From: Massalongia carnosa
Taxonomy: Eukaryota
Direction of reading: 5' to 3'
DNA: 64,000 bases
NCBI GenBank assembly: GCA_965645245.1
Contig: OZ287088.1
Location: forward strand, 806,001-870,000
In this document: positions 29,006 through 51,700 of the stretch, one piece after another
How positions within the stretch are numbered: the first letter of the stretch is position 1
How the letters are laid out: each line of letters opens with the position of its first letter
Translations under genes and position numbers: made by a program
Notes under the pieces: generated by a model
What the model was told of the DNA's origin: nothing
Database searches by the model: none
What the model saw: the letters and a program-made list of their open reading frames with translations, nothing else

Positions 29006-32000
29006 CAGTGCACCCTAGATATAATGATTATGATTATCCATGAGGTCAAATCGTTATAAGGAGAATATCGTTATACCTAAAGAAAGCTTGAATTCCCCCC
29101 ATTTACTATGTAAAATAGCTATCAATTATGGTTTATTTAAGCCCTTGCTTGGTCCTTTGTCCGATAACCCTTTCATGTCGATTTATACGTGAAATGAGCA
29201 CACTATTACCTTCATCCTGCTGTTCTTCATACAAACGGAGGGTTTGTAGAGCCAAAATAGCCTCATTTTGACGAATTCGAAGCATGATTACATCCTCCTC
29301 ATTGGTCTCATAAGCTCTTTCCTCCCTGCTGTACGAATTGACGATATCGTCGATCAAGACTTCCTCGGTGTCATAAAAATCCTCCTCTTGTAGATATAAA
29401 AACTGAGTAATAGACATCGCCTTTGCGATTCTATCCTGATAAACTAGATAATGTATATGTTGAGCCATACTAGAAATGACAGCGTAATATGAAGAATTAT
29501 CCTCCTTTACCTCTTGATGCTAGCCCATATTCTCCGCCTCCTCTCTGTTCATTGGACCATATTTAGCACTCGACACCCGAGATTTCACCCAGCAATTATT
29601 GATTGTCGTCTCAGGAACGTCCTGCTCCTATGCGTCAATCCCCCAACGAATAGCTTGTAAAACGTTCATTATTTTAGTGGGATCAGTATCTTTTTCGTAT
29701 TCAGAACAAATATAACGCAGCCATCTTCTTCGATAACGAGCTTTCCAGGCATGAATAATGCCTTGATCGAGAGGTTGACATAGAGAGGTTGCATTCGCAG
29801 GAAGGAAAAGGATTTTCGTGTTTGTAAGGCCAGCGGGAAAGTCTTCATACAAGAAATCGATGCCTGTTAACTCAATGAGTGAATGAATTTTTCAAATCGC
29901 GTTATAGCTGAATCACCTGCTTTATGAGCTGAAAATCTATCTATCAAAAGAATTACCTTTCGTTCAGTAATTCGATTATCAAACCAAAGCAAATCTTCTT
30001 TGAAAATTCGTCTAGTCATCCAGGCCTTTTGATTGAAACGCCAGCCCAATCGGAAATTGTGGATGTTAATGCCAGATCGTCCAAAACAGCGAAGATTTGC
30101 GGCTTTTCTAATAAAAAATAGAAGAAGTTTGTCCGTGCCGGTCACATTTATAGCGAAATTGACAGATATTCTGGCTTTTTCGTGTTTACCTCCAGGTGTT
30201 TGCTGAGTGGCAAGCGTACCATCCGGGCTCATCTTCCAAAAAAGACCTATCTCATCAAGATTGAAAATATCGCGATTATCATGTCCTTTGAGATGATCAC
30301 GTATATTCTTCAGCTCAGTCTATACGACTACATTATCAACAGTACCGACCTCGCCATATCTTCTATATTTTCTCATCCGATGTCGATTTTTTAAGCCATC
30401 CAGCAAGCCAGTAGAGAATTTGGGCAGTTCTTCGTTTTAATACGGATTGCGCTAGAGGGATACGTGATCGCCTATGGCGGTTGCGGGATTAACTAGCGTG
30501 GACCATGCCGTAGTACGAAGTCGCAGAAGCCGTCGAGGCTGACACACTGCCATCTTGCCCCGAAACTTCGGAGTTATTGTTATCACGTTCTTGACTACTT
30601 ACAGATCAAACACCTGTCGAGGCCGTGGTGGTAGATTGCCATGGAGTGTAAGGCGGACTCCTGTGGAGACGACAAGGAACTCTATATGGGATCTACTGGC
30701 CTACTCGGAGCTACTGGATCTCTTGATGGTTCAAGAGAGGTAGCAGGAGGCACGGCTCGCTGGACGCAGCTTGAGCTAGGCTCCCCGGTGTAAACTTCAG
30801 CTTCAACCTTTATTACTACGTTGGTAGTGATGTCGGCTGAATGAACCTACATGACCTCGTTGTCTAGACCTTGTGTCTAGAGGCAGGTCCGCAGTGTAGC
30901 GAGGTATTCAGTCGGAGGTAACCTTCCATCACTAGGTAGTGGTGACGGCGAAATGAAGCTACATAGCCTGAGGCATGTAGTGAGGGATCTAGCCGGGGGT
31001 AGAATTGTTCTACCTTGCAAGGGAAGATCTAGAAGGCTGCTCGAGGCTGACTAGATGATCCAGCGAACGCCGAGTTCGTGGATGGATCCTGAGGGATGGT
31101 TGGATGTAATGCGATAAAGTCGGATGTGGATTGCAAGGCTGTAATGCTCGCAAGACTCCCAAGGCTTGCAAGGCTCCTAAGGTTCCAAGGCTCCAAGGCT
31201 ATAGGCTTAGGGTGAGTAGGATAAATATCAGAACGAATCTTATAGTATTCGTTAGCAATTAGTCTTTATTCTATGAACAACCTACGTTTGGGTCTCGGAC
31301 GAGATCTCCAGGTCTAAGCACTTCCACATCCATTAGTTCTTTGGATCACGTATACTCTCGGAGACTAGCACGTAGTAGCTATCTTCCTCCTCTCACGCTG
31401 AGCATTTCCCCTTTCGAGATCAGTGTCGCTCGTGATAAGCTTACTGGTCTCGTAGCCCATTACATTCGTCAGCATATTAAGGAAGCTTACTCCAAAAGAT
31501 AGCGGCTATCTCTTTAAGAGTTTCTCCTGTTATTGTAGTTTCTTTTCACATCATTCGTTGCTGCCACTGGAATAAAGCGTCTTCGAGATCTGGCCATTGT
31601 GCTGCACGGTTTTTTCTGACCTCTAAACGCTACACTTTATTGTCTAAGTGAGCGAAAGTGGAAGAAAGTGACTCGGATATGGTCGATTGAGAGGGAAAAT
31701 GATAAAACTGCTGCTCGAACCACTGACGAAGTTGTTTATGGGGAGGTTCTACCATGTGATTAATCAAAATAGTAATCACGAGGAGCTTTTCGGCCCGCAT
31801 CGGTGATAGCGCGACGTCTTTTACGAAGTGGAGGAGGTGAAATGGAGGCCCTGAGGCCATTACTGGCTGATATTGAGGTAGACGAGGACATTTTGATTGG
31901 ATAAAAATAGTTCTGGTTATAATGATGCACACCAAAAAAATCCGAGAAGTGCTAACGATATCGGAACAAAGAAGTTATTGTTATTTGTCTAACAAAATAA

Positions 32001-36449: not shown

Positions 36450-37590
36450 ACAGGTGGTTATAGAAACCTCTTTACCTTGGGCTAGACCCAGTAAGTACGC
36501 CAAACCCTTTTGGAATAATAAATGCAGTGTGATCACGAAAGAAACTCGTAGGCTCAGACTTGTCTGGTCCAATTCCAGAGACATTTCTGATTGGATAACA
36601 TATACAAAATCCAATCACAGAAAACAAAAAATCATTGAAAAGGCTAAAAGACTGTCGTTCCGCAAGGAAATAGAAAAAGCAACCGAATCGCCTACCTGTC
36701 TCTAGCGACTAGCCAAATGGGCGAAAGACAAAAGTGACAAGACAAGAGAAATTTCCAAAATGCCCAATCTCGTTCAAGACGACCAAATAGCCGAGACGTT
36801 CGAGGAGAAATCGGACATGCTAAAACAGAAATTCTTTCCACCCTCCCCTCCGGCCGACCTCAGCGACATAGAGGGTTCATTATACCCCAGCCCGCCACAA
36901 TGTCCAATGATTATAACCAAACTAGAGGTGACGGAAGCCATAGGCCGACTCAAGCGCGATACTGCCCCGGGTCCGGGCGGAACAGCCAACAGAATTGTAG
37001 AGGCATGCTCGGAAAAGCTAGTCGAAATTGCTCGGAAAAGCTAGTCGAAATTACTCACCCCACTGTTTTAAGCATGTGTAGAACAAGCATATCATCCTCG
37101 TGCATTCAAACCCGCTAACACAATCACGCTCAAGAAAACAGGCAAGGATGACTGTTCGACCCCGAAGGCCTATCGACCCATAGCACTCCTAAACACGCTT
37201 GGATAATTAATTGAATCCATTATTTCACAAAAAAAAACCCATCTAGCGGAAACCCACCGACTCCTGTCTGACACCTGGATGGGCGCTAGACGAGGAAGAT
37301 CAACATAATCTGCACTAGAATTGTTGACTGAACAAACTCATACAGTGTGGGGCCAAGGCATCGACAAAGTAGCCATATTATTTAGCATGGACGTAGTAGG
37401 AGCCTATGACTCGGTGACATATCGAAGACTGATTCACAATCTTCGCAAAAGAAAAATCCCAAAATGGATCACTGACTGGGTATACAGTTTTCTGAATGAA
37501 AGAAGCACTACCCTGGCGATTCACAGCCGAGTCACGGGCATATTCGATATAAAAACCGGAATCCCACAAGGCTCCCCTATTTCTCCTATT
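36450..37590 (+). mobile_element. Non-LTR retrotransposon (Tad1-like LINE) RT fragment, decayed
   Basis: KPFWN, FFPPSPPADLSDI, APGPGG, YRPIALLNT, GIPQGSPISP, with stops and frameshifts. Confidence 0.88.
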
Positions 37591-38890
37591 CCTAATAAAT
37601 TTATTGATTTACAACTCTCTATTCGTACATTTATCATGAATCTATATAGTAGTCACGCCGTTATACTTGACCCCTAGGTAGTCAGTAGATGATGATGCAG
37701 GTAGAGATATAGGTGATGAACAGTTTGATTTTAGATGTTTTGAAGCTAGAAAATAAGCGATCGGAACTACCGAGGGTTCAGACAGCTATGCCTGATTTGT
37801 CCAACCCTCTCGGACGCCGACGGATATATCGGACATCCAAGTTTGTCCGAAACCCGGCCCGATTGCCAGCCTACTCATGTTTACTATAATATCAGAAAAA
37901 TAAGACAAATTGTTAGATGAGACAGCTATCCAATGTGCTCTGCCAGACGGCAATATAACGGCACGTCTCAAGTCATCCGCACACGGCTAGCTAATAAGGT
38001 AGTACGGTAGGGAGATTCAAGGTAAACCTGCCCTGCCGCTGTGCCTGCTCTCTATCTTATTTATCTCTTATCTATCTAGCTATATAGACATAGTAGATGT
38101 CACGGACAATGTCTAGATAGGGAGATATGCAAGAGTTACTATTAGAAAGCTAGGTCTAGGGATAGTATACATGACGTCCGACGAAGAGCTCCAAACACCT
38201 GAGAAACCACATAGGTTTTATAGCCATTGCTTCCAACTCCCCTATTCTTGACTTGCCCTCATCTCTGTTCCTGTTCTAATTTCCTAACCATGATCGCTTT
38301 GACCTATTCCGCCTTTCTCCATGCCGAAGCAATTTCTCTCTGCTGGGCAATCCCAGTCGTAGGCTTGGATAGTGGAGACGTTGATATTGGATTCGGGATA
38401 TAGGAGTTTGGGAGTGCACTAAAGGCAGCAGAAGAACGTCTGAACACATAGGATGGGATTTCAGAATAGTTTGGAATAACGGGCCACGGTTCTATTTAAC
38501 ATGCAGGGCAGGTTTCACGGCAAGAGAGCCTGTTAAATTCTAACCCGATCAGGAAACGTGGGAGGGTGCGAGGTAATTCCATGACAGTAGATAGTAATCT
38601 AGATAGAATAATCAATCCTTCCTATAAATACTATTACCTGCCTATTTAACTCAACACAAGTGTGATTTCAATTGACAAGTTTAATAAACTCAAGAATGTA
38701 ATGAATCTAATAATTATTTATGAGTATCTATTTTATTGTTTTACAGATATCGAGATTGTATTCGCAATAAAATGGTTCAAAGACTCCATGATTATTTCAT
38801 CGATTATAAATCTACTTTCTAATACTTCAATAAAAATTCTAATGAGCAGTTCTTCTTAAAATCAGTTCTACACTATATTAAGATCATGCA

Positions 38891-39037: not shown

Positions 39038-40216
39038 ATAATGCAAAATTAAAACAAGAAAAGATAATTCATGATCAACAACGTTGATGTTTTCGATTAT
39101 GATAAAAGATTTACATTTTTTAGAATTAATAGAATAAACTCTTTAATATCTAATGAAATTTGAATTTTATTATTCTTTATATATCGAATTCGAAACTCTG
39201 CTTCATCAAAATTTTTAATTTCTTGTGAACGAGTTATTATCAATTCTATAAGAATTCGCTAATATCGAGCAAATCATGATTTCTCATACAACTTTTGAGT
39301 CGCAGTATATCGAACAATTATCAACGATTCAATTTTGATTTTATGCAAATCATTGTCTTTTTATTACTATTTAAATCCAGACAAACTTGAATCATTAAAC
39401 TTTACATTTTTAACTCGTTTCGGAATCTTAATGACAATAAAAATCACTTTAGAAGTAAATTGAATATTGTACGCAATTAGAAATCAAATAAATTCTCGAA
39501 GAATTCTGATTTGATTTTTGTTGAAATAGTATATGTTGAAATAGGTATATTACTATGGCTATATGGCTATGTAATAATAACGGTATGTATGACCGTGATG
39601 TTAAGGATAAAGTGTTGCTAGGCAGCAATCTTTTCCTATTACTGGTTACCCCCTTCTAAGCGAGGTGATCTTATCTTATCTTAGGACTAAGCCTAATGCG
39701 GCATCTACGGTTTCCGTAGATAATCTGTCCATCTAGGGCAGCCGTAGGTGCTATGTTTATTGTACTGATAGGTGTTTATTGTGCTAGTAGGAATTGGATA
39801 TTCAACAGTTTTTGTTCAATATTTTGTTCTGTTCTTTAATTTTCTTTAACGACGTTTTTTCAAGTTGAATTGAATTGTAAAAAATGATATCGACGAGAGT
39901 AAAGATTCGAACAACACAATCGATGTTTTTCTTGAGATTTTTTCTTAAAAACTACTTAGCATTTTGAACGCGCGTTGCAAAAGAATTATTTATTTTAATA
40001 AGATTCTTATTAACGATTGTAGATTGCGATCGAGAAGTGTCACAAAAAGCTGCAAAATAAGTGATAAAATGAGTGAATTTGGGACAAATCCTGAAATTGA
40101 AACTACGCTTGCCTACGCAGACCGCTTTCCCCAACTAGAGGTGGTACACCTCGTATTGAGGCAGCTAAGAGAGGTCGACGATTATCTATTTATTAACATG
40201 ATTACTCGTCGAGAAC

Positions 40217-41083
40217 CTAACCTTTGTCCGCCGCGATTTCGAAGATTTCCTAAACCTATCAACATGAATTCATCCAGACACAAATAGGACAAGCAGCGTA
40301 CTTCGACTCTACTCTTAAGATATACATAAATATCATCCAGCGGTCCCTCGCAATCTACCTAATAACTGTAAGTAACCGACATCTAGAAACCGGGACTCAT
40401 GAAAATACATCAACAACCTTATCGCCAAACAAGCGAACAATGCTCGGAATGTCTTCGAGATGAGCCTTGTATCTCCTACGAAAGACGTCCGGGTTGTCGT
40501 CCACTCTCCCGGATGTTTTTGCTCTCATCAACATGCGCGCGAGCATGACGTTTTCCGAGCAGTGGAAATGCAGAACCGCCCGGATCTTCCACCCCTACCA
40601 CCAGAATCAGCGTTGCAGAACGCCGCGAAACCTGACCTTTACAGGTGCGCGCGCACTTACATGACGTTCAAAGTACTGCGCCTGCTCCAAGCTCCTGGGA
40701 AAGCCGTCGATGAGGAACTTCGATTGCCCGTTCTGTAGATGCCGGATAAGGCAGCGCTGCAGCACGTCGTGAACGCGAGTATGGGGGACCAGAGACCCGT
40801 TGCGCATGATTGCGTGGATGTCGATTCCTTCTTGTCCATCGGGTGGGTTTTCGGCTTCGGCTCGAAGGAGATCGCCCACTGATACGTGCACCAATCTTAA
40901 ATCTCTGGCCAGTCGCGCACATTGAGTTCCTTTCCCGACCCCTGGGCCGCCTGCGTGGTGCGGCTGTTAATCCTTGAGGTTTCGATATGAGCAAGCGCTT
41001 GCGCTCTCCGAGGGGAGCTTACCGATGACGTAGACGATAGTAATTTTGTTAAAGTCTATGGATTGATCTGTGGATGTATTCAT
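40217..41083 (-). CDS. UMP-CMP kinase (adenylate kinase family, URA6/CMPK1-like), about 208 aa, 5 predicted exons
   Basis: Exons 41083-41023, 40950-40661, 40594-40409, 40358-40302, 40249-40217 join in frame without stops: P-loop VIGGPGVGKGTQC, HVSVGDLLRAE, FLIDGFPR, short LID KTSGRVDDN. The last exon is the least certain. Confidence 0.9.
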
Positions 41084-41519
41084 CTTGGATCTTGCAGCAG
41101 TATTTCTGAACTATATGACACGCTACATATCGTGAGGCTATTGATGTTCTTTTCTTCTATGTGAAGTAGCCAATATTAGACTGCAGGGACTGTACTCTGT
41201 GAGCAAACGGACTTTTCAACTCTGCCTAGTTCTATGCAGAAGCATGGGCAGCCGCATTAGTCGCCTCTACCTTCTCCGCACTAGATAAGCAGAATCAGTA
41301 CTGATAGTAATCCCATTCGCCTCTGCCACTTCATGGAAAGCAGTACTTCGTATATGATGCTGTCTGTGGCCCCCCACTTTTGCTTAGTTGGCCTCGCTTA
41401 CCGACCGAACAAAGTGCGGGCTAAGTATACAGGATTCTTTCTGTTATTCACAGCATCCAGCAGTCGAACCGCATTGAACGGCTTTCGTTCATATCGAGCA
41501 TTCAGCCTTCATCGTCGAA
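41084..41519. promoter_or_regulatory. Putative bidirectional promoter region between kinase and viperin
   Basis: 436 bp between two divergent ATGs with no recognisable TE; inferred from geometry only. Confidence 0.6.
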
Positions 41520-42583
41520 ATGATTCGATTGGACATGTTCCACGCATTTAACATTCATTACATTTGTTTCTTTGCTGGACTACTGGGGTTGCTTGTTGTA
41601 GTCCGCCTGCATGACCGTTTCAGAGCCACTCCCAAGAAAATCCCCATTTCCGTGAATTATTTCATCACGCGAGTGTGCAATTACTCCTGCGGTATGGCGA
41701 TTGCGAGCTTCTTCCATCACACGCGCGATGAGTCACGGCTGACTTGGCGGCAGGATTCTGCTTTCACACGGCCAAGACATCGCACATTGAAACCCTGCCC
41801 AACGCCAAAAAAGGCATGGCGCTCCTTAAAGCGGCGGGCATGAAGAAGATCAATTTTGCGGGCGGCGAGCCCTTTATGAACGCTGAGTTCCTCGGCCAGC
41901 TCGTCCAGTACTGCAAAGAAACCCTGCGACTCGAATCCGTGTCCGTGGTCACCAACGGCAGCAAGGTGACCCGCAGATGGCTGGCCAAGTACGGCAAGTA
42001 CCTCGATATCATGGCCGTCTCGTGCGACTCCTTCGATGACGAGACCAACATCAAGATCGGGCGAGGCACCGGCAACCACCTGAAAACGTTCATGGACTTG
42101 TGCGAAATGTGCAAGGAGCACAGCGTCATGCTCAAAGTCAACACCGTCGTCAACCGGTACAATTTCCAAGAAGACATGAACGCGGCCATCGAACGGATCC
42201 AGCCGTTCCGCTGGAAGGTCTTCCAGGTGCTCATCGTGCCCGAGGAAAACGGCACCGAGTACACGCTCCGCGACGCGCGGCGCTTCCTCATCACCGACGA
42301 GGAATGGCGCCTGTTTTGCGACAAACACCAACATCAGAAATGCTTCGTCCCCGAAGGCAACGATGTCATGGCCAGCTCGTACTTGCTGCTGGACGAGAAC
42401 TTGTGTTTTCTCAACAAGGGCGTCGCCGAGCCGACGAGGAGTATCTTGGAAGTGGGTGTCGTCGAGGCGCTGAAGAATGTGTACTGGGATGAGGAGGGGT
42501 TTCACAAGAGAGGTGGCGTGTACGACTGGTCCAAGAAGGATGAAGCGGAACAACATTCCACTTCTCCGGAGCTTGAGTGGTAG
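41520..42583 (+). CDS. RSAD2: Viperin (RSAD2-like radical SAM ddhNTP synthase), 333 aa, 2 exons
   Basis: Exons 41520-41691 and 41754-42583; the intron (GTATGG...GCTGAC...CAG) splits the motif. Spliced: [78 protein letters not shown]. Hydrophobic N-terminal segment. Confidence 0.96.
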
Positions 42584-43176: not shown

Positions 43177-45790
43177 CTATTTTAGAACCACATGTTCGAT
43201 TCCGTTCTCAATTAACAGCTCTTGTGCTCCAAATTTTATGCCGCTTATGTCTCCAAATCGGGCGGCAACGTGAACAGAGGACCCCCCAGGCCCGTCACTA
43301 GCTGGATCCGCGACTAGAGCAGAATCCCCATTTTTTGAAAGCAACAAAGCCACGTTTCGCGTTTTGTCCTGCCAAGCAGCCATGGATAAAGCAGTTTCTT
43401 TAAATCAGTAATGCCATCGACGTCTTTTGCAAAGTCCTCATCGAGCAAGTATTTGAGCGCGGAGTCATCTTCAAGAACGGCTGCGAGGTGGAGCACGGTG
43501 ATTCTTTCTCGGCGCTCTCCCACGATCATTGTGTTTGCTTTGGCGTTCCAGTCTATACCTTTGTCTCTCAGGGCATATAAGACATTTTGGTGGCCAGAGG
43601 TACGTGCGTAATGTGGCATAGTGCGGCCATCATGATCTTATAACCTTTGCGTCACTTCCGTGAGAAAGTAGTGATTCGACCATATCGATGCTCCCAACGA
43701 GAGCGGCAAACATTAATGCTGTCTCGCCACGAAGAGAGAGGCCATTTTGATCGAGTCCAGCCTCTAGTAGATCTAATAGAGCTTCATAGTTCTTCTCGCT
43801 GCCTTGCCGGCAAGCCTCTGGTACAAGGTCGGCGCCCAATGCTTTATCCGATAAAGCATTCGACCTTTCCAGCAGTTTTCTGAGAAGTGTACGGCTGCAG
43901 CCAATCTGGCAAGTACCTCGGATTGGAGAGTTGTTGCTCTCATCAATGATCTTGTCAACATCCGGAGAATGATCGAGCAGCTTATACACTAGCTGATCGT
44001 TCGAGACTTTGACCGCCGATAGGAGTAGGCCTGGTTCGGCACAGATCTCGTGCAGAGGCCCTCGAGAAGGAATGTGCTCCAAGGCGGCCAGCACCATCTT
44101 GGATGACATAATGCTAGAACTAACAGGTAGCTGTTGAAAACATTTCTTTTGAGCACTCGCTTTGCCATACGGCCAACAGAGCTTCTAAAGCTGTTTGCCC
44201 TGTATTTGACCTGCTCATAAGGTCCGCACCATTTTCGAGCAAAGTTTTCAACCCGGTCAAGAGCAATGTTGAATGTTGAGATGGTTGAAGCTGGCATATC
44301 ACGTTCAGAGTCTGCTTAAGGTCCTCTTGCTTGCCTCGAAATGAATCTGGTAGGCTAGCAAGTCTTCGAAAAGCTTTCTCTCTTACCAAGTCGTTTGCGC
44401 TGTTGATCCCATCACCCATGAGAAGGAGCATTGACGTAATTCCATCCTTACAACCCATGAAAGGATTCACTCCATCATCAAGTAGGACTTCAATGGTCAT
44501 GTCAAGACCTGCACTATTACCATGACTGCATAATGAATTGTGCTTGAGCCATCATGCGTCTTTGCGCTAGGATCTAAACCTTGAGAAACCAGAAGCCGAA
44601 CCACTTTCGACGATCCGGCCTTTACGCCATGATGTAACTAGTGCAGTGCATCCATCAAGATCTAAGTCGTAAGCGCTACAACCAACATCAAGCAAAAGCG
44701 ATACGACTTCTGCGAAACCACTTTGCGAAGCGCAGAAGATCAAGAATCTTTCTTTGCTCCCTTTAAGCTCGTTAAGCGATTTTATCGATGTGACGTCGCT
44801 GAGTAAAATATTCAGGGTTTCTACATTACTTTCCAGTGCGGCCAAATGCCATACCGTCAGGTTTTCATTATCGGTAACGTCTAGACCTTGTTTCAAGAAG
44901 TACGAGAGACAACGAGATTGTTCCCCCTTGACACAATAGTGAAGCGCAGTTTTCCCAAAGCAGCCAACTTTGCTATTACTTGCTCTACGCTCTAATAGAA
45001 CGTGGGCAACTTCCAATTGATCTTTCATCGATGCATAATAAAGTGCAGTTAAGAGTGTGTTTTCTTGTGCTGCGTCTGCATCAACGCCATGATCATCTAG
45101 TAATCGTAAAACTGCCTTGACCTGACAATACTCTGCGGCAGTACGTAAGGAAGCTTCGCTGTGTCTATTCCGATCATGCTTATCTTCATCTGAGCGAGCG
45201 CTCAGTAAAAATAGCCTGATGACACCCGAATTTTGCGTTTTTAGAGCATATTGCAGAGCTTGAGCACGAGTCCCTTCTCCCAGGGAAGAATTTTTGACAT
45301 GTTCCGAGGTATTTTGAAGATTGTCCCAGGCTTCATTATTTCCGGCGCGCTCAATAAGTAGGTTCACGATTCGATCATCGACTATAGCGCCCTTCTGAAG
45401 AAGTCGCCGCGTTGTTACTAGGTCTTTGTCATATACGGGCAAGAAAGAGGGGAGATAATTCACCAGAAGTGCTATGATAATTGGTGTTCGGATCAGCACC
45501 AGCATTTAATAAAAGATCGATAGTTTCCAATTCTCTGCCAGTCTTATCATATATGTCGTTTTCTAGGCTGCTGTAAAAAGGCCAATGGAAAGTTCTATAC
45601 GATCGTTGAGCACAATGGAGTGCGGTGCCGAAAGCAGACCTTCAATTGACGTCACATCCGTTCTCAATGAGTCATTTGCACAAGTGGAGAGACTAAACAT
45701 AGCAGCATAATGTAGCGGGATCGCTTCTTTAATTACAATTGATGGTGACAAGGATGTCTTCATTTGAATAGTCATAAAAGGCTGCCATTC
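43177..45790 (-). pseudogene. Ankyrin-repeat protein remnant (probably the C-terminus of a NACHT-ANK gene)
   Basis: PLHYAA, LTALYYAS, KTALHYCV, LTVWHLAA, GETALMFAA, TVLHLAA, SSVHVAARFG spread over several frames with stops. Confidence 0.85.
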
Positions 45791-48700
45791 GGTGAAAAAA
45801 CCATTTTGAAAAGCCAAATACCCCGAAATCCCACCTTCATATCTGCGCACTTCACATAACGTTCCGGTGGTTGGATTCCAAAGTTCAATCCTTGCAGCTA
45901 GCGATCCAGCGGCCAGAAGGCGATCGTTTGGCGAAAAGGCTACTGTATTAATAAATATCGAGTGACGCTCAAGTACGCGGCATAACCCCCCCCCCCGTGA
46001 TTGAATTCCAGATTTTGACAATACGGTCATTGGATCCGGAGGCAAGAAATCGACTGTCTGATGAAAATGTCACCGCGTTGCCTGTATCGTTAACATCATG
46101 ACCTTGGATCGACAAAGTCCTGACTCCGGTGACTGGATTCCAGACTTCAATCTTACCTCCCAGTGATCCAGAGGCAAGGAGGCGGCCGTCTGGTGAAAAC
46201 GCCAATACATTGATATTATGTAGGGGCTCAGAATTTGTTCGCAAGGATTTTGTGGCAGGATTCCAGAGCCTAACGATACCATCGTTCGCTCCAGAGGCAA
46301 GAAGACGGCCGTTAGGTGAAAAGCTCAATGTTTCAATTGAACCTGTATGACCTTCAAGCAATCCAATCAACACTCTTCTAATTGGATCCCACAATCTGAT
46401 AATACTATCACTCGATCCGGAAGCAAGAAGACAGCTGTCTGATGAAAATTCTATCACCGAAAATCCGATTAAACGACTCCTGTAACAATTGCTGTCGCCG
46501 AGCCTTCCACACCACGCCCCTGTAGCTGGATCCCATAGATCAAGACCCATAGATCAAGACTCTGACATCCTATCGAGGCAAGCAAACTACTGTCGGGGGA
46601 AAACTTGATACTCCAAATAAAGCCATCAATAACTTTATTCCCCTCACGCCCCGCCCCTGTAACTACTTCCCAAAGCCAAACTCTACCATCGAAACACCCT
46701 GAGGCAATAGAGCGGCCGTTTGGTGAAAAAGCAATGGACATCACAAGATTCTCATGACCTTCAAGCACTTTAAGCATTTGTCCTCTAGTTGGATCCCACA
46801 GTCTCACGGTGTGATCATCGGATCCTGAGGCAAGCAGGGAGCCGTCTGGTGAAAAAGCAATGACCTTCACCTTATCCTTATGGCCTTCAAGAACTTTAAG
46901 CAACTGTCCTCTAGCTGGATCCCAGAGTCTCACGGTGTGATCAGATGATCCTGAGGCAAGCAGCCAGCCATCTGGTGAGAAGGAAACCATAAAAATCGTA
47001 TCTGAATGACCCCCAAGGATTTGAAGCACTGCTCCTGTAGCGGAATGCCAGAGTCTCACAGTGTGATCATTCGACCCGGAGGCAAGAAGGCGGTTGAGTG
47101 GGGAAAATGCTATCGTCTGAATACTACTCGAATGACCTCTAAGAACTTCAAGTGTTGCTCCTATAGCTGAATCCCAGAGGCTGATAGTATAGCCATGTGA
47201 TGCAGAGGCAAGAAGACGGCTGTCTGGAGAAAAAGCAATTTGAGGAATGCCCGATGTACGGCCCTCAAGAATCTGTAAAGAGAGATTCCAATCTTGATCA
47301 AGTACTGATACGGCTTTTATCCATTTCGGTGATTGAATCACAAACTGGTTTCTTACTGTGCTATTTTCAGGACTGAATACAATGGCGGAGTAGTAAATCA
47401 GGAGAGGTGCTATTTCGATAACTGATCTATTGATAGAAATGAACCTATTGGCGTCGTTAATCATAGCAAAAAGATGAACTCATTTCTCCCGATGTGTCTT
47501 AACTAAATCATGAGGCCCATAGGACACTATTATAGAAGCTAGTTTCCTAATCGCAATAACCCCAGCTGTTATACTCCCTATTAAACTCAGAGCTTCAAGC
47601 CAGTTAAGAAAGTGCTTCTGAAGGAATCCACAAATGTTGTCATCGTCACAGAAGTCGACATAGCCTCGCTCAAGATGGTCAACCCACAAGCGGCATGCGT
47701 ATAGAAAATGTGGAGGGAAGTTTTTCTCCAACCTAATTTTCTCTACCTCGTTCGCAAGAAAGCCTGGTACTTTCAGGTTGCACATGTTGCGTTTAAGATG
47801 ACTTGACATTAGCTGCAGGCATCTTTTANNNNNNNNNNNNNNNNNNNNNNNNNNNNNNNNNNNNNNNNNNNNNNNNNNNNNNNNNNNNNNNNNNNNNNNN
47901 NNNNNNNNNNNNNNNNNNNNNNNNNNNNNNNNNNNNNNNNNNNNNNNNNNNNNNNNNNNNNNNNNNNNNNNNNNNNNNNNNNNNNNNNNNNNNNNNNNNN
48001 NNNNNNNNNNNNNNNNNNNNNNNNNNNNCTGAATCGATCTCTTTTCCACATCAAGCATCTTGGAAAGAGCAGCTGGTAAAGGGTTCAAATACGACGGCAA
48101 TCGGTCCAACAACCTTTTTGAATCGTTGAATTAGTTCCTCTTTGTCTCGACCATTATGTCCTCCAACAACCGAATAGCTCAAGATACCTTTGTACATATG
48201 TTCAAGCTTATCAGGATTTCGTTTCTAAGAAGATGACGGAGAACCTCCATCGATCAAGAGCAGGAGGGGGAGTCGTTTCATCGGGTCAAACCTCTTATCG
48301 CCTATAAAAAGGCATGCTGTCGCAGCATAGATAAACAACCCCTCAGCTCTCTGAACGAGAAGATCGATCTTCTCCACACCAGGCCAGGCATCAGGTAGCT
48401 CAAACTCACGCGTCTTCCGAATTTTTTGTAGTTCATACTTAATGAATATCTCAATATCGATAGACTTTAGGTCAGGCAAGAGGACGAATATTCTCGCGGC
48501 CTCAACATTGCCGGACACCTCTAGCCTACTAGTGATAAATACTCGTAGCCTAATCCCCTTCAGAGGTTTTGTCTCACTCAAAGTTTTTAGAATCAATCCA
48601 ATATCATTTGCGCTCTCGCACTCGTCCACAGCATCAATCACAAAGATTAAGCTTTGCGGTTGAAATGCTTCACTATCACCCAGGCGATCCAGAGGACCCA

Positions 48701-50400
48701 GAATAAGATGCTTCCACTGCTCGCGGAATCTTTGTTGAAGAATACGAGAGTTATTGGCTGCTATGGCTCTGCTGATGTCACGTTTGAGGCTAGGTACCGT
48801 GGTTGCTAGCTCACGGGCGAAAGTGGTAATGAGTTTATTGGCATGGTGAAGATCGACCTGATTCCTGGAAAACAAGAAACTCGCCCCCAGTAGTTTCTCC
48901 TTACTAAAAGAGTGGCCAACAGTGCGAGAAACGGTGGATTTTCTGGTTCCAGCCATCCCCTTCAGCCAATAAATTGTTTCACCATTAGGATCGTTGCTCC
49001 ACTCCATGATCTGGCGGAGGAGATCCACTCGAGTGTTTGCTAGGCATTGAGGAGCAGGCTGTCAAAGTATGGAATCGAGAGCAGCACCCTCAGCATACGG
49101 TAGCTGGGCCATGTATGGGTCTATGGTAAGTGATATTCGGCGGTGGGAGGTACCGACAATGTCTTTAATCTCACTTCGTACACGGACAAAGTTTGGATGA
49201 TCGGGACCGACAAACTTGTTAAGATGGAAATGATCAGAGGCGAGGCCGTACCTAGGTGGTCTATCTAAAAGCAAGCTGAGCACTCGTCTACCATTAATTC
49301 CTTGTGTATATAGTCATAGTAAGTTCGTTACGCGAGTCGCCGTCAGGGGATTACACACCCGGTAAGATAGCCAGCGTAGAAACCATGGTCTATGGTCTGA
49401 TCACCGCAGTAATATCTGTGGAATGTTGCTCGAAGAAACAACAGAGCGAAATGCCACTGTCTTCAACAACACGCTTGAACTCGGGCACCATATCTTCTAT
49501 TATATCCGATCCCTCCTGTACCACGGCTAGAAGCCTACTTTTGTGCCTAACACCCGCCATCGCCGCAATCATTGCAATTATCTCCGCTTTGTGTTGCGAG
49601 TGAGAGCCGCGATGGGGTGTTCCAAGAAAGATAACTCCAGCGGTATAATTCTTAAGATCGGGAGATAAAAGCAGAGCCTTGAGAAAGGCAAAGTCAATAT
49701 ATATCACGTTAAAGCTCTCTCGTGAGGAATGCGTACCTTTTCGATAACGAGACCTCCAAAGCAGTGCCCTATGAATACCACTGGTCGTTCCGGATAATGC
49801 TAAAAGGAGCTATGGTAAATACCAATCAAAGGAAACCTACCCTACGAACGGACCTTTCTTCTCTCAGCAAGCTGGGACAGAAGCTGCTCTCCAATTAACG
49901 AGAGTCTTTGCTTGACAAAATTACCCCCAAGCCATTTAGATTCGTATGCGAATCGCGTTATTCGAGTATTTGGAACCGCTTGAGGAAGCATGTCTAAGTC
50001 TTTAAGCCAATTGACTTGGATGGGTGGGTTCCCGGGTAGCTTGGCGACCCATGTCCAATCCGGATCAGCTGCGATACCATGCACCGCAACAATGCTGATT
50101 AATTCGTTAGCATGAGTCGGGGAAGAGCATTGTTATCGACGATTGCTTTTACATTAAGTGCGGATCGTTCATATTGAACATCGGCCATGGACCCACAGGT
50201 TACTCAGGTTGCAAGAAGGGTGGAGGACTTACTCGGCTTCCACGTCTTGTCCTTCATAAAGCGTGAGGAGACCGATTTTACTTTCGGGCTGCGAAGCCCA
50301 GTTTTGCTATCGAGCTGCTTTCTTTGATATGCGCACCATACTCCAAATGCCGTAAGAGCCATGAGAGATGAAACCAGCCATTTTTGGATCTCCCTGTCGG
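45790..50400 (-). pseudogene. Fungal NLR: SesB-like alpha/beta hydrolase + NACHT + WD40, inactivated
   Basis: DIVAVHGI, VNWLKD..LP, RPVVFIGHCFGGLVIEK, IFLGTPHRGS; NACHT WLKGMAGTRKST and IFVIDAVDEC; HFLNWLEALSL; at least 10 WD40 repeats. Stop at 49062, 14-bp duplication at 46533-46560 and a C11 tract near 45990 break the frame. 5' end approximate. Confidence 0.9.
47829..48028. other. Assembly gap (200 N)
   Basis: Run of N inside the NLR gene. Confidence 1.
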
Positions 50401-50770: not shown

Positions 50771-51700
50771 CACCATGGCGAAACCCCCAGTGTCGATGTA
50801 CGTCTCACCAAGCCAGGAAAAAACGCCGAGTTTCGCGTTTGCAATCCCCCCTTTGCCCAAGACGTCGAATTAACTTCCGACTCCGATGCCACCGTTCCCG
50901 GACAGCCGTCGATTCCGCTCGCCCAGGAATGCGTGGCGCGTTTTCTTCGCGATGAACTCTCGGTGGAGCGTCTGGACAGCAGGTACTGGATGTTACGGCT
51001 CGTGTCCAAACGGGACAACATCAGCCCCTTGCACCACCAAGCCCTCAAGGGCCGCCAGATCAAGATCACCGAAAGACCGGATCTTCACCTGGTCTGGTAC
51101 TACGACCAAATCTTCATCAAGCCGATTCCTCGCTGCCTGCTCAACCATGCGTTCTACCGCGCCTACGTGTCACCGGATCCGCAGTTGCGGTTGCTGGCGA
51201 ACGGATTCCTGAGAACGTACGCGAAGCTGATTGTTCACGAGTCGGATTTCGACGTCGCCGTTGCGAAGAGGTTAATACCGCAGGAAGTTACCTGGGCCGG
51301 GTGGTGCTACTTCGTGCAGGGGTTCGCCTATGTGAAGTGCGCCGAGGTGGCGAACCGCTATCATTACGGGGCATTGCGGCTCGCTCGCCTGAATCTGTAT
51401 AGCAAATTGTTTTTCTACGAGTGGAGTTACTTTGAAACCTACACGCAATATACGCGGTACTTTGCGAGATTCTTAAAGTCTTATATTTTTGTGTTCGGTG
51501 GCATCACGGTCGTCCTGACGGCAATGCAGGCTGCTATCACGGCGGATCCCGAAAGCGTCTATAGGGAGGCCGTCTATGGGTTTTCGTCGTTCAGCATCTA
51601 TCTTACAGGCTTTGGATTGGCGTTTTTTCCGCTCATGTATTTCTTTTTCCAGTTTAGGGAACTTGCGTTGTACGTATGTTGTCACCAGAAAGCGGATTAA
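50771..51700 (+). CDS. DUF6601-like protein with two C-terminal TM segments; start exon unresolved
   Basis: Frame open from 50771: PPFAQD..VPGQP..FLRDEL, PLHHQ..KGRQIKITERPDLHLVW...IFIKPIP, RYHYGALRLARLN, VVLTAMQ. No in-frame ATG in the N-terminal part, so an upstream exon or a frameshift is needed. Confidence 0.75.
   Translation, partial: HHGETPSVDVRLTKPGKNAEFRVCNPPFAQDVELTSDSDATVPGQPSIPLAQECVARFLRDELSVERLDSRYWMLRLVSKRDNISPLHHQALKGRQIKITERPDLHLVWYYDQIFIKPIPRCLLNHAFYRAYVSPDPQLRLLANGFLRTYAKLIVHESDFDVAVAKRLIPQEVTWAGWCYFVQGFAYVKCAEVANRYHYGALRLARLNLYSKLFFYEWSYFETYTQYTRYFARFLKSYIFVFGGITVVLTAMQAAITADPESVYREAVYGFSSFSIYLTGFGLAFFPLMYFFFQFRELALYVCCHQKAD

Follow-up and report, generated by a model that had tools for sequence, protein, structure and literature searches.

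In vertebrates, the viperin gene RSAD2 and the kinase gene CMPK2 lie head-to-head. The neighbouring kinase is taken to supply viperin with its substrate, and kinase linkage is reported for 12% of bacterial viperins as well (bioRxiv 10.1101/2023.09.13.557418). Fungal viperins adjoin CMPK1-type kinases of the adenylate kinase (ADK) family, distinct in origin from CMPK2; this has been read as convergence and tied to the UTP preference of the fungal viperins, which the kinases are proposed to supply with pyrimidine nucleotides (Shomar et al., bioRxiv 10.1101/2023.09.13.557418). Such an arrangement is found at 40217-42583 of a 64-kb stretch (the window) from Massalongia carnosa (GCA_965645245.1, contig OZ287088.1, positions 806,001-870,000), where a viperin gene on the plus strand and a nucleoside monophosphate (NMP) kinase gene on the minus strand, both intact, stand head-to-head. 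It is likely that these genes form a two-gene nucleotide-analogue module of a lichen-type ascomycete, viperin plus a dedicated kinase of the URA6/CMPK1 branch: a module of a known kind, in a reduced form that lacks the CYTH gene of related loci. The fungal pairing of viperin with a CMPK1-type kinase, including the idea of convergence, has already been published by Shomar et al.; the window is a further instance, in a Lecanoromycete-like genome, and shows no difference in kind from what they describe, its kinase being the immediate neighbour of viperin, within three genes.

How does the locus compare with the better known arrangements? CMPK2 is thymidylate-kinase-like (PF02223), whereas the window kinase has the adenylate kinase fold: its exon 2 matches PF00406 (ADK; 83 bits, E 2.6e-23) and the kinase gives no PF02223 (Thymidylate_kin) match at E up to 0.01, which bears out the contrast with CMPK2 drawn in an earlier, sequence-only reading of the locus (the initial annotation). 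Unlike the prokaryotic viperins with linked kinases, the window genes are separate and eukaryotic, with introns and a divergent promoter, and do not form an operon. The initial annotation placed two intact divergent genes 436 bp apart; its coordinates are exact, with ATGs at 41520 and 41083, and no second copy of the pair is found within the window. The splice sites below are predicted from the sequence and from intron positions common to related loci:

41520..41691, plus strand: viperin exon 1 (172 nt), encoding a hydrophobic N-terminal tail together with cysteines 1 and 2 of CxxxCxxC
41692..41753, plus strand: viperin intron (62 nt, GT..AG, phase 1)
41754..42583, plus strand: viperin exon 2 (830 nt), with the radical S-adenosylmethionine (SAM) core, the beta-8 loop (FLNK...), RGGVY, LEW and the stop codon (42581-42583)
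41084..41519, between the genes: divergent intergenic region, presumed bidirectional promoter (436 bp, ATG to ATG)
41083..41023, minus strand: kinase exon 1, with ATG 41083 and the strand leading to the P-loop
40950..40661, minus strand: kinase exon 2, with P-loop GGPGVGKGT, NMP-binding SVGDLLR and DGFPR
40594..40409, minus strand: kinase exon 3, with short LID RAKTSGRVDDN and RRRY
40358..40302, minus strand: kinase exon 4 (VDCEGPLDDIY...), which follows an intron in related locus L004 too and aligns with relatives and with canonical URA6
40249..40217, minus strand: kinase exon 5 and stop, the least certain exon, placed by GT..AG sites and an open frame

Spliced from two exons, viperin has 333 aa (a second in-frame ATG lies in exon 1 at 41535), and the full CxxxCxxC motif announced by the initial annotation is restored once exons 1 and 2 are joined, as CNYSCGFC across the junction, just as in full-length relatives. 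Profile and structure matches place the protein in the viperin family: exon 2 scores 211.2 bits on NF038283 (cutoff 180) and 342.7 bits (E 2e-102) on TIGR04278, the latter for a query without the first 58 residues against a cutoff of 450, and its E values against solved structures are 1e-102 to 3e-104 for fungal viperins and 3e-89 for 5vsl/6q2p; 6Q2P is mouse viperin according to Shomar et al. (bioRxiv 10.1101/2023.09.13.557418). A 20-row alignment of fungal viperins, of which the window protein is one row, has 77 invariant columns. The hydrophobic N-terminal tail is also present in the aligned fungal relatives and is typical of most eukaryotic viperins (bioRxiv 10.1101/2023.09.13.557418). At the C-terminus, RGGVY fits the published RxxxY clamp motif (bioRxiv 10.64898/2026.09.10.750538) and the terminal LEW fits the published [LIM]-[DES]-[WF] tripeptide (bioRxiv 10.1101/2023.05.19.541488). 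The best named matches, from Lepraria finkii (85%), Lambiella insularis (78%) and Xanthoria calcicola (76%), all come from lichen-forming Lecanoromycetes.

The kinase gene was described by the initial annotation as having five exons, and so it appears: every intron is GT..AG, the product has 208 aa and belongs to the PF00406 family, and introns 1, 2 and that after exon 3 are placed alike in related loci, where read-through translations break at the same points. The tail encoded by exon 5 finds no conserved match in the alignment with relatives. Among solved structures, both large exons match yeast uridylate kinase 1UKY best, and the protein retains the P-loop, GDLLR, DGFPR and the short LID SGRVDDN. 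The homologue search was made with the stop-free exon-2 open reading frame (ORF) and reached proteins of 65-209 aa, a range outside which the longer Lecanoromycete forms of URA6 lie; among longer proteins, multi-domain adenylate-kinase proteins filled the results and no single-domain relative came up.

Is the pairing peculiar to this fungus? The initial annotation supposed that it had been built here independently and proposed a survey of fungal viperin neighbourhoods. Metagenome contigs were scanned with the viperin alignment, which gave 80 loci (L001 and so on), and the kinase was sought in them by tblastn with the spliced protein. A divergent ADK-family kinase was found in 20 of the 80 (19 at E up to 1e-3, plus a contig-end fragment in L030), and in all 20 it lies upstream of viperin on the opposite strand; several loci are near-duplicates, leaving about 13 distinct lineages. 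Linkage and orientation are thus conserved across fungal loci. The locus tags of the L. finkii viperin (ABVK25_002429) and of the top named kinase match (ABVK25_002430), whose contigs are equally long, are consecutive, and 12 further pairs of viperin and kinase matches on equally sized contigs are an indirect sign of the same linkage. Because the pair has been inherited across many fungal lineages, it was not built by this fungus, and that part of the initial annotation falls, while the linkage on which it staked its reading is present in related fungi.

When only loci with at least 1,500 bp upstream of viperin are counted, 18 of 30 carry the kinase; the other 12 (L022, L025, L037, L039, L046, L054, L056, L060, L065, L069, L071 and L072) have viperins of at most 52.5% identity to the window viperin. 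All 14 loci whose viperin is at least 53% identical carry the kinase, by a cut chosen post hoc. A Pfam scan of 134 ORFs covered 10 of the 12 kinase-less loci, L039 and L072 being omitted as near-copies. Two thymidylate-kinase-type (CMPK2-like) ORFs, L056:376-1926 and L065:7192-8163, both on the minus strand, were seen near viperins of 45-47% identity; that of L065 lies beyond a CYTH gene that is itself head-to-head with viperin.

Outside the pair, little is shared. Nucleotide similarity between the window and the related loci is limited to the two coding regions: blastn of the 436-bp region against these loci found no intergenic conservation, the best 8-mer promoter motif is present in 6 of 13 intergenic regions, unconvincing beside the 5 reached in shuffled sequences, and 13 neighbouring window ORFs compared with the related loci had no match except WD40 repeats in L060. 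Across 14 loci, pairwise viperin and kinase distances correlate (Mantel r 0.74; 0 of 5000 permutations reach this r); the correlation fits co-inheritance, but any two vertically inherited genes would show the same.

If the kinase so resembles yeast URA6, might it simply be the housekeeping URA6 of this genome, adjoining viperin without any dedicated partnership? The nearest solved structure is yeast URA6 (1UKY/1UKZ), which shares the short LID, P-loop, DLLR, DGFPR and SGRxDD, and the named matches are uridylate kinases at 48-51% identity. Against this stand the recurrence of the two neighbouring genes, in an unchanged orientation, in 20 loci as well as in L. finkii, and the kinase tree. In this tree of 55 rows (a quick method, with no AK1 outgroup and with some long branches), a tight clade (99% support by the Shimodaira-Hasegawa-like approximate likelihood-ratio test) unites the canonical uridylate kinases of chytrids, Mucoromycota, yeasts and Sordariomycetes; the window kinase and every linked kinase fall outside it, on long branches. 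On TIGR01359 (cutoff 207.6 bits), canonical URA6 proteins score 231.5 and 232.9, whereas full-length proteins of the linked clade score 142 (P0252), 134 (P0265) and 178 (P0308); the window exons, taken separately, give 76.6 and 43.2 bits.

Compared with the canonical consensus, the linked kinases also share substitutions: A45V, K107S, I74L and I155F each in 12 of 14 rows, I69M and V35A each in 11 of 14. A45V falls within the SxGDLLR segment and K107S after DGFPR; such clade-wide changes may mark a changed substrate or regulation. In the window kinase itself, residues 35, 45, 69, 74, 107, 155 and 159 carry changes from the URA6 consensus that are common to most linked kinases. Finally, the mean pairwise distance is 0.63 for the kinase and 0.42 for viperin, a faster divergence than would suit an essential housekeeping enzyme. 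Because of its exclusion from the canonical clade, the low TIGR01359 scores, the shared substitutions and the fast divergence, all indirect signs, the housekeeping explanation is very unlikely, and the linked kinase is probably a dedicated paralogue in a distinct, fast-evolving clade. Of the name UMP-CMP kinase given in the initial annotation, the fold, the motifs and the proximity to URA6 hold up; a place in the canonical URA6 clade does not, nor does the clade reach the TIGR01359 cutoff.

What would viperin make? Lys319 and Cys314 of mouse viperin select CTP, Arg257 of the Trichoderma virens enzyme selects UTP, and the main product of the T. virens enzyme and of an Aspergillus viperin is ddhUTP, the 3'-deoxy-3',4'-didehydro (ddh) form of UTP (bioRxiv 10.1101/2023.09.13.557418). 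The ddhUTP-forming T. virens viperin (6B4C, 7N7I) matches the window protein at E ~1e-102 across the core and has the same LEW end; it differs in the beta-8 loop, which reads FLDR there and FLNK in the window. Judging from chain lengths, the Arg of FLDR would be Arg257. Among 20 aligned fungal viperins, this loop residue is Lys in 18, the window protein included, Arg in one and Gln in one. Family membership and the state of this residue together make ddhUTP the probable main product, accompanied by some ddhCTP.

A third gene keeps company with the pair elsewhere. ORFs with a CYTH (triphosphate-tunnel) domain first surfaced beside viperins in the Pfam scan of kinase-less loci, and a search across loci by tblastn and by a profile built from 16 CYTH-like proteins found a CYTH-like gene in 23 of the 80; 15 of these 23 are among the 20 that carry the kinase, and the closest relatives of the window belong to them. 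Flanks of 3 kb or more on both sides are available in 19 loci: the kinase occurs in 13 of these, CYTH in 14 and the two together in 12. The position of this gene varies. In L001-L006, the closest relatives, a distance of 419-580 bp separates viperin from a downstream CYTH gene on the opposite strand; other loci have it on the far side of the kinase or immediately head-to-head with viperin. Among the genes found by profile or tblastn are:

L001:11241-12050, minus strand: CYTH-like gene
L003:11259-11972, minus strand: CYTH-like gene
L004:11393-12031, minus strand: CYTH-like gene
L008:6973-7575, minus strand: CYTH-like gene
L012:1-642, minus strand: CYTH-like gene
L015:6303-7007, minus strand: CYTH-like gene
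L060:2929-3828, minus strand: CYTH-like gene
L065:8655-9773, minus strand: CYTH-like gene

The CYTH-like proteins of the close relatives have no Pfam CYTH match at E 0.01 and keep the ExExK signature. The L004 protein, modelled with a mean predicted local distance difference test (pLDDT) score of 94.1, is nearest to mouse and human thiamine triphosphatase (ThTPase; TM 0.73, E 3.8e-12). No CYTH gene is found in the 64-kb window, where the best profile match has E 5.4 and tblastn agrees. CYTH is also absent from L007 and L017 despite long flanks, and their pairs are intact. The literature searched yielded no paper that connects viperin with an adjacent CYTH gene; Shomar et al. (bioRxiv 10.1101/2023.09.13.557418) mention four cases in which viperin is fused to a "triphosphatase or cyclase" domain.

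How might the two-gene and three-gene forms be related? A tentative scenario, plausible rather than probable, is that the ancestral fungal unit comprised viperin, a dedicated URA6-derived kinase and a ThTPase-like enzyme, that the window holds a two-gene derivative whose third gene was lost or relocated, and that the fast evolution of the kinase reflects conflict with viruses, not relaxed constraint. In this scenario the ddh-nucleotide would be modified or kept in check by the third enzyme, which might, for instance, protect the cell by hydrolysing ddhUTP or catalyse a step on the way to a ddh-nucleoside.

In the proposed mechanism, both window genes would share one 436-bp promoter region. The kinase would phosphorylate UMP and CMP, feeding the substrate pool of viperin, and viperin, a radical-SAM enzyme with a membrane-type N-terminal tail, would turn a pyrimidine nucleoside triphosphate into a chain-terminating 3'-deoxy-3',4'-didehydro nucleotide. 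Would the target be a virus? The pair could be functional and yet not antiviral, for instance if its ddh-nucleotide or nucleoside were secreted as an antimetabolite within the lichen consortium or helped to regulate metabolism. Literature searches yielded neither induction nor virus data for fungal viperins, papers that mention both viperin and mycoviruses included none on a fungal viperin to judge by their titles, and the triphosphatase-like gene of related loci encodes an enzyme that might act on the product. Viperins across life, in turn, keep an immune function exerted through chain-terminating nucleotide analogues (bioRxiv 10.1101/2023.09.13.557418), the N-terminal membrane tail fits the eukaryotic antiviral form, and RNA viruses occur in lichen fungi, to judge by literature titles. 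A non-antiviral role appears unlikely, and the reading that we retain is a nucleotide-analogue module with a presumed antiviral role.

Several points weigh against this reading. The CYTH partner of 15 of the 20 kinase-bearing loci is missing from the window. Proteins of the linked clade fall under the UMP-CMP-kinase cutoff, one of them scoring slightly higher on the AK1 model, and the kinase substrates are putative. The window viperin has Lys at the presumed position of the UTP-selecting Arg257. Splicing and co-regulation are predictions made from DNA, and the literature consulted showed no antiviral role for any fungal viperin. Lastly, AT-rich sequence on both sides of the pair and transposon fragments close by make a decaying locus conceivable, although neither frame is interrupted.

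The initial annotation spoke of transposon debris and broken genes around the pair, a description that Pfam matches on ORFs bear out in part, with transposase and reverse transcriptase fragments on the left and split NACHT-WD40/ankyrin ORFs on the right:

29870-30319, minus strand: DDE_1 fragment of a pogo-like transposase
31633-31974, minus strand: HTH_ABP1_N fragment of a pogo-like transposase
37309-37674, plus strand: RVT_1 reverse transcriptase fragment
43317-45505, minus strand: ankyrin-repeat ORFs, split over overlapping frames
45566-47479, minus strand: WD40 ORFs, split over overlapping frames
48228-49061, minus strand: NACHT/NPHP3_N ORF, within the 43180-49809 cluster

The 43180-49809 cluster (minus strand, 0.6-7 kb downstream of viperin) makes up one or two NLR-like genes, perhaps broken. 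Left of the pair, GC falls to 29% in a block at 39-40 kb; the immediate flanks have 34-35% GC. Their indices of repeat-induced point mutation (TpA/ApT 0.78-0.83; (CpA+TpG)/(ApC+GpT) 1.05-1.21) do not reach the customary thresholds. Could the pair, then, be a decaying remnant, its frames still open while the unit is silent or being lost? The AT-rich flanks, the nearby transposon fragments, the NLR-like ORFs split among frames and the absence of CYTH from the window all point that way. Set against them are the 333 and 208 codons free of stops and frameshifts, with all conserved catalytic motifs present, and the intact pairs of L007 and L017, which lack CYTH as well; decay is, on this evidence, extremely improbable.

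Two other features of the surroundings were seen. Contigs from four runs, of no stated kind, gave patchy cover without joints, a result that speaks neither for nor against expression or splicing. A stretch of about 79 bases past the 3' end of the kinase gene (40106-40184) is nevertheless represented by very short contigs in all four runs, at a depth of up to ~18,500, far above that of neighbouring genes. The window holds a single copy of this stretch, Rfam and tRNA scans of the entire 64 kb gave no match, and the stretch may be a high-copy repeat or a shared element. Farther right, at 50771-51697 on the plus strand, an open frame of 309 aa matches DUF6601 (259 bits).

What does the locus say about fungal viperins? 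Since the two genes are all that the window shares with its relatives, they appear to act as a unit while their surroundings turn over. The substrates of the kinase may include ddh-nucleotides, given a linked clade that is separate, fast-evolving and below the UMP-CMP-kinase threshold. And the window, without CYTH, set beside relatives that have it, provides a natural with-and-without comparison for the function of the third enzyme.

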